From positions 980,631-1,044,630 of the forward strand of contig CBDCNM010000001.1 in assembly GCA_965219385.1 (NCBI GenBank): a stretch of DNA of 64,000 bases, read 5' to 3'. The DNA comes from Candidatus Latescibacterota bacterium (GTDB lineage Bacteria; Latescibacterota; UBA2968; UBA8231). Shown here one piece after another: positions 30,001 through 36,000 of the stretch (its first letter is position 1; each line of letters starts with the position of its first letter). Position numbers: made by a program.

Positions 30001-33000
30001 CTGGGGGGCGACTACTTACTGGGAATCCGACGCCCTGGATACTCTGGCGATCCCTGGACGAATTCGGACCTTGCAAGTCGCGTACAGCCTGCTCGACCAG
30101 CGGCTTGAAAAAAGGCTCTTTCCCCATTGTAAAAAACAAAAAACCGCTGTGATATTGCGATCCATTTTTCTCAAGGGCGCGCTTTCGCATCGAGCCGGCA
30201 ACCTTCCTCCCGAACTGTCCGATTTGCGTCAGGAATCCCAAAAAGCCGGCCGGATCGCAGACGCAGCCGGAATCAGGCTACCGGCACTAGCCCTGCGTTT
30301 TGTCGCCTTTAACCCCCATGTCCAGATCACCTTGTTCGGCACCACGAGTATTGCGGAAACAAAAGCCAATACAGCCGCTTTCCAGGAGGGCCCTTTGCCC
30401 CTGGATGTAATAGAGCAATTGAACCACCTCAGAGTCGATGACGAACAAATGCTGAAACCAGTGTATCTCACACCAGGTTGGGCCTAGTGTAAGAAGCCGT
30501 CTCAAAACCCCCCATATCCCGGCGATATGGGCGGATTCGCCCGCCTTGTCCGCCGCTTTTTCGTTCGGGCTCGGGGCTCACCAGAAATTTTAAGAGGGCT
30601 TCTTAGACCTGTTGGACCCTGGAGGACTATTTCTGCCGAGCAGCACTAGAAAATCCGCAAATGACCATGAACTTGTTGCTGATCTCCATCGATAGCTTGC
30701 GGCTGGATTGCGTATCGCGTACCAATCCCGCCATTCATACTCCCTGTTTTGACCAGCTTACTCGCAACTTCTGGTTTTGCGAACGTCTTTTTTCCCCCTC
30801 CTCTGCTACGCGACCGGTGCACGCCTCTCTATTCACCGGCCTTTATCCTTTCGAACATGGGGTACTCGGGCAGGGGTCTCCTCGGATGCGTTCGGGCCTT
30901 TCTCACCTTTTTGAGCTTTTTGACCAGAAAGACTATGCGACTAGGGGGTATTCGGAAGCCCAGGTCATCTTTGAAGGCCTGGATTTCGCCCCCTGGATAC
31001 AGCAATTCTCCCGCAATCCAGCCAGACAGCTGGGAGCCTTTCTGAGCCACCCTACCCCCAAGTGCCTCTTCCTGCATTACTGGAGTACCCATACCCCTTA
31101 TGGCGCCGAAGATAACAGAGCCTTCGGTGAAACCGCACGGCTACTCTTTAGTGGACGACAGCATATCGTGCGCCAACGCTATCTACATGCAGTGGAAAAG
31201 GTATTTGAAAAAAAACTGGCCCCGTTGCTGGCTCAGCTGGATTTGAGCCAGTGGTGCGTCCTCATATTCGGCGACCACGGTGAGAGTTGGACCATGGAAG
31301 AGCCCTATCACGGCACGACCCTGAAAAACTCGGTGCTACGCGTCCCGCTCTATGTACACCTCCCCCGTTTAAAGGCCCAGGTCCCGACCCGACCCTTGCT
31401 CTCCATCATCGACTTGTTCCCCACCCTGGTCAATCTCTTCGAATTAAACCTGACCTACAAAGGCTACGGCCGCGATATCAGGCAGAATACCTGCTTCCCC
31501 TACCACCTGGCTCAGATCCACCCATTGCCGGGAAAGGACGACCTGACCGGTGAGGCAGCCCAGGAGCAGATACTCGGAGGCTACTACGCAGGTCCCCGTT
31601 GGGCGGTATTTGATGAACAGCGCAAGTTTACCTTTGAGGAAGGACGTGGAAAGGGAAGATTGGAACATACCCTGACCGAGGAAATGCTCGATGATCCAAG
31701 CATGGCCGCCCACTACAAGGAAGTCTATACCCGGATGCAGGCCGACTCGGCCTATGTCCATCTGCCCATTGAGCCAAGCCTCCCAACCCGGGAGAATCTG
31801 TTGCACCAGCGACTGCGAGATCTGGGTTATATGGAGTGAGGATTCTCCACCTCTATCCGTATTACAACCCCGCTTTCCACATCCAGAATGACAAATGTGC
31901 TGGCCTCCAGTCGTCCCATAAGTTCTCCAGGATTGAGCAAGCGACAGGGCCCAACCCGCTCGTCGCAAGCCACGTGGTCGTGGCCGTAACACACCAGATC
32001 GTAGTGGCCCGCGGCAACCAGCCCCCGGGCAATCTGAGGGTAGTGGGTCATGGCCACATGCAATCCACCCAGGTCCAGGTCGGCCAGTTCACCGTGCAGC
32101 GCAACCTGCCCGAAGCGAGCGGCCTGCTCGGTCCGCAGCCACTTGTCCCCATCATTGTTCCCCCAGACCACATGGATGGGGCCGGAAAATCCCTCCGCCA
32201 ACTGCACCAGGGTAAAAGGAGCGCAAAAATCCCCACAAAAAAGGATGACATCCGCCTCCTACATCGGGGGAAGCGCCCGTTCAAGGACCCATATATTATC
32301 GTGAATATCCGAACAAATTGCGACCTTCATAGGGTTGTCCTTTATTTTTTTGCAGGGTTGAAAACGGCGTACTGCTCGCCGAGCTCTGCAAAAACCTCCT
32401 GCCAGCGCGCCGCATACGAGGCGTGATCGTAGGTGGGCACAAAACCAAGTTTGAGGTAGGTCTTGATAGCGGGAATCCGGAAGTCATCGGTCCGCAGCAC
32501 TATGGGGCGCCGGGGCAAGGCCAGCGCCGATTCTATTGTTCGAGCAGTGACATGGCTACCCAGCCCCTTGCCGCGGTGGCCTGGATGTGAGGCCACCCAG
32601 CCGATTTCCCAGCTTTTTACCCCGCCAATCGTGCGGTCGTACACGCTGCCAAGGGCGCCAATTTCCCCCCCCACAACCACGAAAAACTGTGTTCCTTGCA
32701 CCAGATCTCCCTCGAGTTCCGCCCGGATTCTCTGCAAATCCCAAACCCCCAACTCGCCATTGGCATTGAGCGCCTCCATCCATCCACTTTCATCGCCCTC
32801 CTGGTAGGTGCGCAAGAGGTAGCCTTGTTCCAGTTTGCCAACCAGCGGAGCAATCTGGTGGGGATAGCGCATCAGCAACTGCGGCTTTGGCTGCTCTTTG
32901 TTGCTCCCCAGTGCTCGCTTGAGAAAATTTGTGAGGATTTTGCTGCCCGCCACTTTCAGCACCTATTGATCGGCCTTGTTGCACCGATACAGAGAGGACT

Positions 33001-36000
33001 TGTACTTTTCCGGGAAATGAGGTTCCAACACCACGACCTCGCACTCGGGAAAGGCTTCCTTGAGCCCTGGGGGCGCCCCCTGGTCATACCCCAGGGCAAT
33101 GATCTGCGGCTGGATATCCGCCACTACCTTGAGAAAGTTTTGCGGCCCACCAGGATACCCTAGGCGCACATTGTTTATCTGTGCCAAACCTTCCAGCTTG
33201 GCCTTGCGCTCCTCTTCGCCCTGGTCCGGATAGCGGCCTTTGATGCGGCGCACATTTTCGTCCCGGGCCACCACCACGTACAGCTCCGAGCCCAGGGCCC
33301 CGGCCTGCTTTAAAAAAGATAGGTGGCCGGGATGCAAATAGTCGAATGTTCCACAGCACAAAACGCGTTTTCCCATGAATCCCCCAGCCCTTGGAAGATC
33401 AGAATTTTTCATTGGCCCTGCGGTCAACCCAAAAATCCATATCTCTATCCTGTTTGAAGATGGCGCCGAAGCGACGGGCATCGGACCGGGTTTTGAAATA
33501 GCCGATGCGCACCCTTGTGCCTTTTTTGCCGGGATTGGGGACAGCGTACGCGGGGTAGCCTTCTGCAGTGAGTTCGCGCACCATACGACGAGCGGTCTGG
33601 GCATCCGCATAGACCCCTACCTGCACGGTGAACTCCCCTTCTGGGTCGTAGTACACCGGTGCATTCGTTGCGTCGGGGGCATCCTTTGGTATCAATGCAT
33701 GTTCCGCACCCGACGCTTCTTCAGTTTGGTCAATTTCCTGTGTTTGTGGGACCTTTTCGGCTTGTGGAGTTTCTACGATCACTAGCTCATAGCGCTCTTC
33801 AGCTTCTTCCTCTTCCAGCCCCAATTCGTCCCGGGAATCGATTTCCCCGCTTCCACACCCCCCCAACCCCCATAAAAGAACACCGGATAAAAACCATTGC
33901 CAGCTCCTAGCGTACATATCTCCAGATGCTACGATCAATGGACTGTTTTCAGGGCTTCGTAGTGGACCCGCAAGGTCTGATCGATATCCTGATCCGTATG
34001 CACTGCAGAAGGAAACATGCATTCGAATTGGGATGGCGCCAGGTAAATCCCCCTTTTTAAGGATTCCCAGAAGTAGTGTTTGAAGCGTTCTGTATCCGCC
34101 CTCGAGGCGCTGTGAAAATCCCTCACCTCCGCATCCACAAAGAACATGCACATCATGGCCCCTACCTGATTTACCGCATAGTTGAGCCCCAGGGTTTTCA
34201 AGTTCTCTTTAATCCCCTCTCCCAGCCTTTGCGATATATCCCCGAGCCGCTGGTACACCCCCGGCTCGGACAGCATCTTCAGCTGCGTGAGACCGGCGTG
34301 CATCGCCAGAGGATTGCCCGAAAGGGTGCCGGCCTGGGTTATCTTCTTGCCCAGGGGCGAAACCTCCTGCATGATCTCCTTCTTGCCCCCATACGCCCCT
34401 ACGGGCAGGCCCCCGCCGACGATCTTCCCCAGGCAGGTCATATCCGGTACGACCCCGTAGTATTCCTGGGCGCCCCCGGGTCCCAGACGGAAACCGGTGA
34501 CCACCTCGTCAAAAATCAGCACCATGCCCTGGTCGTGGGAAATTTCCCTCAAGCCTTCCAGGAAGCCTTCGCGCGGAGGCACCGTGCCCATATTGCCCGC
34601 CACGGGCTCGACTATGAGCGCAGCGATCTCACCAGGGTTTTTCAGGGTTGCCCGTTCGACCGCGGCAAGGTCGTTGAAGGGCAGGGTGATGGTATCGGAG
34701 GCAACCCCCTGGGGAATCCCGGGACTATCGGGGGCCCCAAGAGTCAGGGCCGAAGACCCTGCTTTGATCAGGAAGCTGTCACCATGGCCGTGCCACCCCC
34801 CTTCAAATTTGATTATCTTGGAGCGCTCGGTATAGCCTCTGGCCACGCGGATGGCCGCCATGGTGGCCTCAGTGCCCGAATTGACCATTCGGACCATTTC
34901 AATGGATGGCACCATCTTCACTATCTGTCTGGCCAGATCGACTTCGACTTCTGTAGGGGCTCCAAAGCTGGTACCCCGGTCACAGGCCTCCTTTACCGCT
35001 TGCGTGACCTGTGGATGGGCATGCCCGAAGATCAGTGGCCCCCATGAACACACGTAATCTATGTATTCCCTCCCATCGATATCGAAGATATGGGCTCCCC
35101 AACCATGGCTGATAAAGGGGGGGCCTCCTCCAACAGCGCCAAAAGCCCGTGCTGGACTGTTCACCCCACCGGGGATAAAATCGCCCGCTGCTGCAAAGGC
35201 CCGCTCAGATTTACTTTCCACCTACCTCATCCTGTTGTCTTAAGAAGCCTTCTTAAAATTCCCGGTGTGCCTTCCCATAATACCACAAAAATAGATTAAA
35301 ATCAACCTTTTACGCATCTATGCTGCTTGCTTTAGACACCCGGCGCCCTTTCGATATGCAGCAGGTCCAACCCGGATTCGTCCTCCTCAAGGCGTTCGAG
35401 CAGGAAAATTGCGTACTTTCGCGCCTTTAAGGATATTGGCAGACCGGCCATGATTGCAAAGGGCCAATCAGCCGTCTGCAGGACCGTTAGGAATCCGCGT
35501 GGGTCGGCCACGAGCAGAGCGCCTACCCCACCAGGGCGCAGGATACGAGCCGATTCCTCCATTTGCCTATAACATTCCTCCTTAAACCCCCTGTCTTTGC
35601 TTGTGGGCACCATGCCCAACAAACAGTCTACGCTTTTTGCCGCCAGGGGTAATTCGTCCATGCTGCCGGCCAACCACACCTGGTTCCGCTCGAACGCCTT
35701 TGCCGTAACTAGGCGGGCCCGGTCGTGGTGGCAGGCGATCAGGAGATGGGGGTCGTTTACCTGCTGAAGTTGATCCAGCCCATCCTTCCCACAATCCAGT
35801 ACCACTACAATATCTTCTTCCTGGATGTCGAGGATCAGGGCGAGGCAGTAGGCCAAACTGCCCCCCAGCCCCTCTCTTTCCACCGAAGTATACCGAGGTC
35901 TACCTGCGGGAACCCGCAAACTAAAAAGAGCCCGCCGGCCAGCGACCTGCAGGTGGAACTGCATCGAATCTTTGCCGTTTCCAGGCCTGAGGCCATGGTG

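Follow-up and report, generated by a model that had tools for sequence, protein, structure and literature searches.

A RibL-type nucleotidyltransferase as the probable replacement for the FMN-adenylyltransferase half of RibF in a family of Latescibacterota

In the Latescibacterota family to which the source genome G000 belongs (n = 76 genomes, G000 included), a RibL-type FAD synthase has probably displaced one half of the bifunctional RibF protein. FAD synthesis is usually described as split three ways, with a fused RibF in bacteria, RibK and RibL in archaea, and a kinase together with Fad1 in eukaryotes. As judged from gene content, members of this family would make riboflavin de novo, convert it to FMN by means of the presumably active, ATP-dependent kinase half of RibF, the gene for which is present at the truB-ribF-rpsO locus, and adenylylate FMN (FMN + ATP -> FAD + PPi) using P0001, a 137-aa RibL-type protein encoded within the window, i.e., the 64,000-nucleotide stretch of DNA analyzed here. 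Both ribH and ribA are present in G000, and 23 PF00890 matches indicate that FAD is required. The outcome would be the non-orthologous displacement of a single domain, with two separate proteins replacing a bifunctional one.

Table 1. Location of the genes discussed; plain ranges are window positions, and those with a contig name are contig positions.
Feature	Position	Strand	Remarks
P0001, RibL-type nucleotidyltransferase, 137 aa, proposed FMN adenylyltransferase	32963..33376	-	Supported by ORF, PF01467, clade, structural model
SPOR-domain protein	33399..34151	-	Upstream neighbor; kept in 35/35 family-type loci
hemL, glutamate-1-semialdehyde aminomutase	33935..35221	-	Neighbor; kept in 31/35 loci
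GNAT-like acetyltransferase	32342..32962	-	Downstream neighbor; kept in 32/35 loci
Kinase-only ribF, ~126 aa	C1:977475-977854	+	Outside the window, ~3 kb before position 1; PF01687-type kinase domain
truB	C1:976519-977478		Upstream of kinase-only ribF
rpsO	C1:977878-978147		Downstream of kinase-only ribF
P0404, 384 aa	G000:C2:3987087-3988241		CinA/PncC-like domain and HxGH domain; family-specific nucleotidyltransferase

Distribution of the two genes within the phylum

The FMN-adenylyltransferase (FMNAT) domain of RibF, PF06574, is found in 0 of the 76 family genomes and in 89 of the 92 other genomes of the phylum, upholding on about twice as many genomes the claim of the preliminary description that the domain was lost from the whole family. 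In G000 itself no PF06574 match above the cut-off was detected, and a tblastn search (E <= 1) that took the FMNAT portion of RibF from a sister family as its query returned nothing. Similarly borne out is the confinement of the window gene to this family within the phylum: orthologs sharing 56-77% identity occur in 67 of the 76 genomes of the family but in none of the 92 outside it, and two weak matches (33-36%) in other genomes of the phylum both fall outside the RibL clade. While family-only presence thus holds true for the window gene, it does not single this gene out, as the PncC/NadD-like P0404 displays the same pattern (75/76 vs 0/92).

The family genomes are 58-98% complete and 2.8-7.9 Mb in size. 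All 30 near-closed genomes (<=10 contigs) carry the kinase as well as the RibL-like gene, and five of the nine genomes without a RibL-like match are also without a match to the adjacent SPOR gene in a search run without a positive control, which fits an assembly gap. The archaeal RibK plus RibL pathway as a whole was not found in G000, the kinase of which is of the PF01687 type: a profile drawn from four archaeal loci, with its own source sequences as controls, detected no CTP-dependent riboflavin kinase there (best E 0.56).

A kinase-only ribF between truB and rpsO

At the truB-ribF-rpsO locus of G000 the kinase domain alone is found and, as had been described, the domain has been kept at this locus across the family (PF01687 in 71/76 genomes). 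Specifically, truB directly precedes the kinase in all 31 loci, and the distance from the truB stop to the PTAN codon is 57-165 nt in 27 of 31 measurable loci; a single full ribF, measured for comparison, gave 662 nt. What remains in the family is a C-terminal, RibF-type kinase with the PTAN motif and the catalytic Glu (ExH), both recovered from 29 of the 30 relatives' loci extracted, with one missed by the pattern; an N-terminal FMNAT fused to this kinase is found in none of the 76 genomes. The G000 kinase matches the kinase half of a sister-family RibF at 44%, and the kinase-only gene is the sole kinase copy in the genomes searched.

The G000 kinase had also been described as split over two reading frames. 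This split is an assembly error, since the G run at L001:7534 is one G longer in all three of the contig sets spanning the stretch, which derive from three studies and may include the source sample of G000; the same extra G rules out a programmed frameshift or a pseudogene. The three contigs concerned, from public runs, span the kinase stretch unbroken with a single difference of one base, and RNA run X9 yielded no contig over it. A frame split at the kinase locus is also seen in G009. A TruB-kinase fusion considered for L012 was rejected, its 475-aa frame being a GC-rich read-through that overlaps truB out of frame; other long open frames at the locus measure 475 aa in G073 and 463 aa in G065.

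The window gene, its protein and its neighborhood

The ORF of P0001 is intact and encodes a single-domain HxGH nucleotidyltransferase with a cytidylyltransferase-like fold, as expected of RibL. The protein matches PF01467 and contains the motifs GTFDxLHPGH, VVVARD, ALGYDQ, and PEKYKSS, with H15, G17, and H18 invariant in 49 of 49 sequences. It falls far below the curated cut-offs for RfaE (TIGR02199; 53 vs 181.5 bits), TagD (TIGR01518; 33 vs 165.4 bits), and CoaD. The predicted structure (pLDDT 89) has 3glv, 2b7l, and 1coz as its top structural matches, with Z scores of 18.8 for 3glv, 18.7 for TagD, and 15.7 for RfaE/HldC, such that the modeled fold by itself cannot tell 3glv from TagD. By sequence, the top PDB match is 3glv of T. 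volcanium (E 3.5e-29, vs 1e-11 for TagD), which we take to be a RibL and with which P0001 has VVVARD and LGYDQ in common. A Methanosarcina RibL-like protein aligns at 45% over 96 aa only, and a Peregrinibacteria protein at 45% over 129 aa.

The family proteins end in PxxYKSS, as do those of Patescibacteria and Woesearchaeota, and do not contain the CxxC that precedes SS in methanogen-type proteins (L135, L139, L141). Other cysteines are kept: C8 in 49/49 sequences, C7 in 46, and C112 in 41. As CxxC is also absent from Thermoplasmata genes located in rib loci and from the active Entamoeba enzyme EhFADS (PMC11423594), this motif does not define activity.

The genes flanking the family locus are hemL, the SPOR gene, and the GNAT gene; no flavin gene and no teichoic-acid, polymer, or polysaccharide context was found around it. 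The SPOR-domain protein has no known flavin link, and its true start probably lies downstream of the ORF start. The distance between the ribL-type gene and the kinase gene is 20-42 kb in the 16 family genomes measured, and searches of the window, L001, and L172 gave no FMN riboswitch at the gathering score. Recent acquisition of the ribL-type gene finds no support in composition, its GC and GC3 matching those of hemL and the GNAT gene. A phage origin, hinted at by two Atlas clusters, was likewise discarded: at E 1e-10, none of 50,697 phage records matched.

Phylogenetic placement

In a tree of 57 rows chosen from 96, which included neither M. jannaschii RibL nor a true TagD, a RibL clade of 50 rows stands apart from RfaE/HldC-like proteins (support 100/99). 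The Latescibacterota family is monophyletic within this clade (100/100), which also includes archaeal RibL from riboflavin loci, and the RfaE-like protein of G000 itself is placed in the outgroup. Sequences L080, L082, and L093, recorded as Gemmatimonadota, group in the family clade, and all are without PF06574. Another tree step dropped 14 rows picked as near-duplicates, and a 168-row tree, run in a quick version only, was mostly unresolved.

The description of the protein as archaeal-type holds for the enzyme class and probably not for the donor, as the nearest relatives of P0001 are proteins of Patescibacteria, Nitrospirota, and DPANN, not those of methanogens. In the best tree the family lies inside a Patescibacteria plus DPANN group (96/91). 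Direct descent from a euryarchaeal or TACK RibL is not favored by this tree, though an AU test does not reject such an origin (delta lnL 20, p 0.119), and the donor is not settled. The history suggested by these data is that the family ancestor gained a RibL of the PxxYKSS subtype known from Patescibacteria and DPANN, that the acquired gene was fixed in the hemL-SPOR-ribL-GNAT locus, and that the FMNAT half of ribF, by then redundant, would later have been deleted cleanly.

Relatives outside the family

Flavin genes flank the RibL-clade gene at 12 of 74 non-family loci, and one glycosyltransferase was found among 142 scanned neighbors. Archaeal members of the clade adjoin ribB/ribH (L121, L124, L126, and L143, the last a Thermoplasmata locus with the gene between ribB and ribH), a CTP-dependent kinase (L127, L133, L148, L151), or ribA (L132). 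Bacterial members are fused to an ATP-dependent kinase in either order (RibL-kinase in P0181, kinase-RibL in L125) or lie within 0.4 kb of one (L092, L116, L166). At the short-contig Spirochaetales locus L142, neither RibF half was found in the genome.

Among 201 Patescibacteria genomes, a RibL-like gene occurs in 32 of the 39 with the kinase and no FMNAT, in 31 of the 157 with neither half of RibF, and in none of the five with a bacterial FMNAT, a contrast that is exaggerated by relatedness and unequal completeness and for which the E-value threshold was placed where the results showed a gap. It appears that many Patescibacteria use the same kinase and RibL pair, which in some may have been fused, in one order or the other, to form a two-domain protein. 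Together, the RibL clade with its rib and CTP-kinase loci, the kinase fusions in two orders, and the co-occurrence in Patescibacteria are the basis on which FMN adenylylation by P0001 is proposed, and they support its earlier designation as the likely FAD synthetase. Counting against this assignment, seven of the 39 kinase-only Patescibacteria have no RibL-like gene, and 31 of the 63 genomes with a RibL-like gene have no PF01687 match, a CTP-type kinase being found in one of five tested. Also counted against it are the fusions of RibL-like proteins in Patescibacteria, which are promiscuous: 30 long homologs carry flavin (two), TruB (five), NUDIX (five), Ham1 (two), other (four), or no (12) fused domains. 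The lack of a flavin neighbor at the family locus and its distance from the kinase weigh against it as well.

The closest non-family relatives are found in one Nitrospirota family, in 47 of 61 genomes, and 60 of the 61 have PF06574; the motifs are intact in 12 of 12 loci read. This co-existence with RibF means that a RibL-type gene can persist in genomes that do not need it for FAD, or that it has another function. In the Nitrospirota genome G414 the gene order is ribL-coaE-ribF, which fits a role in flavin or CoA metabolism equally.

Alternative explanations

It is unlikely that the window gene encodes a TagD- or RfaE-like sugar- or alcohol-phosphate nucleotidyltransferase or an enzyme of the CoA pathway, with FAD coming from an unrecognized enzyme. 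The shared fold, the RibL-type gene alongside intact RibF throughout the Nitrospirota family, and the adjoining coaE in G414 are compatible with such a role, but the subthreshold RfaE, TagD, and CoaD scores, the separate branch from RfaE/HldC in a tree built without a true TagD, and the absence of a cell-wall-polymer context argue against it. Furthermore, G000 has separate paralogs of P0001 that are RfaE-like, CoaD-like, NadD-like (L005), and PEP-mutase-fused. As for an unrecognized FAD enzyme, a eukaryote-type Fad1 was rejected, as the sole PF01507 (PAPS-reductase-family) match above cut-off in G000 is presumably CysH-type, judging by its motifs. Less likely still is that P0404, which may resemble yeast Pof1, is the real replacement FAD synthase and that the window gene has another substrate. 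P0404 tracks the family better than P0001 does and matches no curated family over cut-off except PF01467, and G000, with its canonical-looking NadD (L005), would have no need of a second NAD enzyme. Its predicted structure, however, matches CinA/PncC and NadD structures, with no FAD synthetase among the matches listed; a riboflavin kinase lies near its homologs at 0 of 80 metagenome loci (flanks up to 4 kb), and no rib gene is among the 82 neighbors scanned of 118 in all, whereas seven of those 82 are UbiD-family. P0404 is also absent from all 201 Patescibacteria, though the 39 kinase-only genomes there likewise need an FMNAT. Moreover, the Atlas clusters closest to it occur most often in Planctomycetota and Chloroflexota, and fused RibF is present in 1190 of 1194 bacterial genomes, a survey-wide figure rather than one for those P0404 carriers (PMC2972280).

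That FAD is imported, leaving the RibL-like gene dispensable for flavin metabolism, is very improbable, judging from genome size and flavin gene content. Uptake of flavin cofactors by some bacteria has been reported (PMC9060500), but the family genomes are large, G000 retains ribH and ribA along with an intact kinase with which to make FMN, and halting one step before FAD in all 76 genomes is unlikely. The chance that the FMNAT is only hidden by gaps or errors in the genome assemblies is negligible: incompleteness and the frame splits in G000 and G009 might suggest it, but this explanation is already refuted by the position of truB just upstream of the kinase in every locus and by the public contigs that cross the stretch in one piece, and the 76 genomes without PF06574 include the 30 near-closed ones.

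Comparison with known systems

The archaeal RibL FAD synthetase is M. jannaschii MJ1179 (Mashhadi 2010, as cited in PMC5397151, PMC8305020, and PMC11423594), the methanogen enzyme whose air sensitivity is tied to two C-terminal cysteines. P0001 resembles archaeal RibL in its single HxGH domain, its size class of ~140 aa, and its clade, shared with archaeal genes of ribB-ribL-ribH and CTP-kinase loci. It differs from methanogen-type RibL in its PxxYKSS ending without CxxC, and from archaeal RibL in that its partner is a bacterial ATP-dependent kinase rather than the CTP-dependent RibK, and in being bacterial, whereas a passage of PMC5397151 states that RibL orthologs are absent from Bacteria. 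The closest parallel in pairing is Entamoeba histolytica, in which a stand-alone riboflavin kinase of 131 aa exists beside EhFADS (EHI_198800), a cysteine-free RibL homolog and ATP-specific FAD synthase (PMC11423594). In both systems a monofunctional flavokinase is combined with a RibL homolog, acquired laterally in Entamoeba and presumably so in the family, in which it likewise appears to lack the two cysteines. Activity and importance have been shown for EhFADS. In Entamoeba, a eukaryote, the kinase is ancestrally separate, while that of the family was cut from a bifunctional RibF without leaving its original position.

Like bifunctional RibF (FADS type I), the family kinase is RibF-derived and keeps PTAN and the truB-ribF-rpsO position; unlike it, the FMNAT half is gone from the family and is not found elsewhere as a split gene. 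The fold shared with TagD and RfaE/HldC in the P0001 model is offset by scores below their curated cut-offs, by the lack of polysaccharide context, and, for RfaE/HldC, by a separate branch. RibR of B. subtilis and MreA of S. agalactiae are extra paralogs beside a full RibF, while the kinase-only gene of the family is the sole copy in the genomes searched. All three consist of a kinase alone, of the type found at the RibF C-terminus, and four split RibF cases keep RibF-type modules (PMC2972280).

Implications

The novelty of the pairing is tempered by its occurrence in Entamoeba and by the JGI and NCBI pipelines, which already name some orthologs 'FAD synthetase'. In a wider reading, for which we consider the evidence evenly balanced, RibL is not archaea-specific, and its bacterial subtype without the cysteine pair would be the main FAD route across Patescibacteria (63/201 vs 5 with bacterial FMNAT). 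This subtype may have passed from ultra-small to larger bacteria and displaced half of RibF in the Latescibacterota family, with the Nitrospirota family representing a redundant stage before loss, while in some Patescibacteria the pair may have been re-fused, in both orders, yielding a second bifunctional FAD synthetase that was assembled independently. Neither ribKL nor ribF was found in the Parcubacteria examined in an earlier study, despite their FAD-dependent MurB and TrxB (PMC4508563); the wider reading, if true, would fill this reported gap of 'missing FAD synthesis'. A hybrid route found throughout this large-genome family and often in Patescibacteria would, if true, mean that metabolic reconstructions treating these genomes as FAD-incapable need correction, and would provide a clear case of one-domain displacement in which ancestral, redundant, displaced, and re-fused states are all sampled.

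Reduction of RibF to its kinase domain

The preliminary description held that only the kinase domain of RibF remains at the truB-ribF-rpsO locus, and that the FMN-adenylyltransferase (FMNAT) half is gone from the whole family; both claims are borne out. The riboflavin-kinase domain of G000, the genome containing the window, lies directly after truB. A domain search of this genome for PF06574 returned nothing over the cut-off, and no FMNAT was found there by a local profile or by tblastn with the FMNAT half of a sister family. Within the phylum, PF06574 occurs in 0/76 family genomes versus 89/92 genomes of the 13 other families, one of which (f2) is represented by a genome in which a full ribF (323 aa) stands between truB and rpsO at the corresponding site, the ancestral arrangement. 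The kinase domain is present in 71 of the 76 family genomes, with PTAN and the ExH glutamate retained; truB lies upstream in all 31 loci read, and its stop is 57-165 nt from the PTAN codon in the 27 of these that were measurable.

The split of the G000 kinase over two frames, also reported previously, is present in the assembly. In contigs from three runs and three studies, each spanning the stretch, the G run at L001:7534 is one G longer (these public-run contigs may include the G000 source sample), and the split is therefore an assembly error rather than a real feature. With the extra G, the kinase frame is 381 nt long and its GTG start overlaps the truB stop.

Features discussed in the text, with their coordinates
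Feature	Position	Strand	Remarks
Kinase-only ribF	C1:977475-977854, 3 kb before the window		Order truB, riboflavin-kinase domain, rpsO
RibL-like nucleotidyltransferase, HxGH	window 32963-33376	minus	Intact 137-aa ORF
Transposase-like ORF, 481 aa	window 28110-29555	minus	Presumably IS701-like; flanks presumably murQ-like and aldo-keto reductase-like genes
Group II intron 3' domain (RF00029)	window 39098-39174	minus	At the 5' end of the gene pair in the next row
Gene pair	window 36435-39316		Presumably M16-peptidase-like
Second peptidase of the pair	window 37379-37630 and 36435-37373		Split over two ORFs
ribL 3'-end fragment	G000:C2:1938674-1938772		Frameshifted; 73% to residues 93-125
P0404, 384 aa	G000:C2:3987087-3988241 (L010:850-2004)		CinA/PncC-like domain fused to NadD-like HxGH domain
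Kinase-RibL fusion	L125:4653-5420		Paceibacterota
CTP-dependent riboflavin kinase match, archaeal type	G282:C1:282745-283062		Patescibacteria genome also carrying a RibL-like gene
Two tandem frames of ~430 aa (L164, L165)	G171:C21:15567-17185		Riboflavin-kinase domain ending each

Elsewhere in the window, no reverse-transcriptase-like ORF of at least 120 aa was seen upstream of the intron domain, as far as window 44000, and the split of the second peptidase is perhaps another assembly slip.

Distribution and identity of the RibL-like protein

Against NCBIfam, the window protein (P0001) reaches only the cut-off of a generic cytidylyltransferase-like domain. Automatic annotation already labels some orthologues FAD synthase. 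As first described, this family alone in the phylum sample carries the gene, orthologues (56-77% identity, E below 1e-39) occurring in 67/76 family genomes and 0/92 outside. Family genomes without a match do exist (9/76), but all nine are fragmented assemblies and none is among the 30 genomes of ten or fewer contigs, every one of which carries both kinase and RibL-like gene; in all five of the nine that were tested, the SPOR neighbour gene was not found either, in a search run without positive control. The order hemL-SPOR-ribL-GNAT is stable in the family, with no flavin gene close by. The observation is real, family-wide and broader than initially reported. Additionally, a ribL fragment in G000, joined to what we take to be sigma-factor-like sequence, is either a decayed copy or a mis-assembly.

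Searched against PDB sequences, the family profile matches T. volcanium 3glv best (E 3.5e-29 versus 1e-11 for TagD), and 3glv has VVVARD and LGYDQ in common with the window protein; comparison of folds does not separate 3glv from TagD (Z 18.8 and 18.7, respectively). Named relatives (best 80 of 327 confirmed) belong to Patescibacteria, Woesearchaeota/Micrarchaeota, Thermoplasmatota, Methanosarcinales, TACK archaea and Nitrospirota, and a 57-row tree places them in a single clade separate from RfaE/HldC-like proteins (support 100/99). There the family is monophyletic (100/100) within a group of Patescibacteria and DPANN sequences (96/91), its nearest neighbours being, at weak support (95/73), Peregrinibacteria and Nitrospirota sequences. 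A C-terminal PxxYKSS is common to this group, the family included, while three methanogen-type sequences have CxxC at that place. Placement of the family with euryarchaeal and TACK genes survives an AU test (p 0.119), so a Patescibacteria-type donor of its ribL is likely rather than established. Judged by sequence, the window protein belongs to the RibL clade and is predicted to work as a RibL-like enzyme.

Flavin links outside the family

A flavin gene adjoins the RibL-like gene in 12/74 non-family loci: ribB and/or ribH in four from Thermoplasmatota, a CTP-dependent kinase in four archaeal loci and ribA in one Woesearchaeon, with an ATP-dependent kinase linked in three bacterial loci, L125 among them. 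The L125 fusion and P0181, a RibL-kinase fusion represented by one sequence from short contigs (the best 120 of 651 matches include no other full-length case), are candidate bifunctional FAD synthetases assembled independently. In G323, kinase and RibL-like genes are adjacent and co-oriented.

Of 201 evenly drawn Patescibacteria, 5 carry PF06574, 43 the kinase and 63 a RibL-like gene, the last counted at a threshold (E 1.8e-27) placed at a gap in the results and checked by a tree in which six low-end members fall inside the RibL clade and weaker matches outside. The RibL-like gene occurs in 32/39 genomes with kinase and without FMNAT, in 31/157 with neither half (30/156 without the unpublished G322, on which no claim rests) and in 0/5 with FMNAT; since relatedness and unequal completeness of the genomes exaggerate the significance that the nominal p value suggests, the counts alone are used. 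Speaking against a flavin role, about half of the RibL-carrying genomes show no PF01687 kinase, the CTP-type being found in one of five tested, and fusion partners of the RibL-like domain there are often unrelated.

Several further arrangements were observed. TruB is fused to a RibL-like domain, in either order, in P0142, P0148, P0151, P0225, P0263 and L144, which may echo the truB-ribF neighbourhood or reflect chance crowding in small genomes. Among the Patescibacteria, RibF-type FMNAT occurs in only a few genomes, G179, G206, G231, G255 and G277 (L167), as short frames of 183-223 aa separate from the kinase, the two genes being adjacent in G255. In the tandem frames of G171, ~320 residues without domain assignment precede each kinase domain. 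G282 is a candidate full archaeal pair in a bacterium, with contamination possible.

Alternative readings

Six PF01467 matches occur in G000, including the window protein and P0404; from their motifs, we take the other four to be NadD, CoaD, RfaE/HldC and a PEP-mutase fusion. Family-only presence had been offered as an argument for the RibL role, and the pattern itself holds, but P0404 is equally confined (75/76 family genomes versus 0/92 others), so that such presence alone cannot tell which of the two is the FAD synthase. The window gene, rather than P0404, is favoured on other grounds. The predicted fold of P0404 is that of CinA/PncC plus a NadD-like domain, no riboflavin kinase occurs in the available flanks of its metagenomic loci (0/80), no rib genes were seen among its neighbours (0/82 scanned of 118 picked), and it was not found in the 201 Patescibacteria. 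P0404 lacks the ESCTGG serine motif of PncC and reads GLTGGG instead; its relatives are widespread, with UbiD-family genes among 7/82 scanned neighbours.

Counter-evidence comes from a Nitrospirota family (G168, G379-G438; L079, L273-L290) in which the closest outside relatives occur in 47/61 genomes, PF06574 in 60/61 and RibF together with the RibL-like gene in 46/61. Motifs of the RibL-like gene are intact in the 12 loci read. This co-presence may represent a redundant stage before loss, but a second role could also explain it. Gene order in G414 is ribL-coaE-ribF, and what we take to be ATP-synthase a/c-like genes adjoin the RibL-like gene in 5/6 loci read.

Proposed pathway and precedents

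The presence of ribH and ribA, together with 23 FAD-binding-family matches, indicates that G000 makes riboflavin and needs FAD. Riboflavin would be made de novo, two genes of that route having been found, and the kinase-only RibF remnant, whose gene and motifs are observed, would convert it to FMN. The window protein, earlier named the likely FAD synthetase, would probably make FAD from FMN and ATP, a role we infer from its clade, the flavin neighbours and fusions of its relatives, and co-occurrence in Patescibacteria. From the sister-family state and the need for FAD, we infer that RibL would have been gained first and the FMNAT half of ribF deleted afterwards. The pathway so proposed is a hybrid, neither archaeal RibK plus RibL nor RibF.

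In the parts of the literature considered here, fused RibF is reported from 1190/1194 bacterial genomes, with four split cases built of RibF-type modules (PMC2972280); rare kinase-only sequences are noted with no partner assigned (PMC2573891); no ribKL or ribF is reported in Parcubacteria (PMC4508563); and MJ1179 is listed as the characterised RibL (PMC8305020). Among titles and abstract openings, with few subscription papers, no account was found of a bacterial RibL acting as FAD synthase or of FMNAT loss in Latescibacterota. As excerpted, the report on Entamoeba describes a proven FAD synthase that is a cysteine-free RibL homologue, alongside a kinase-only protein (PMC11423594), the combination proposed for the family. 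The finding thus has a proven eukaryotic precedent, and the corresponding activity in the family is predicted.
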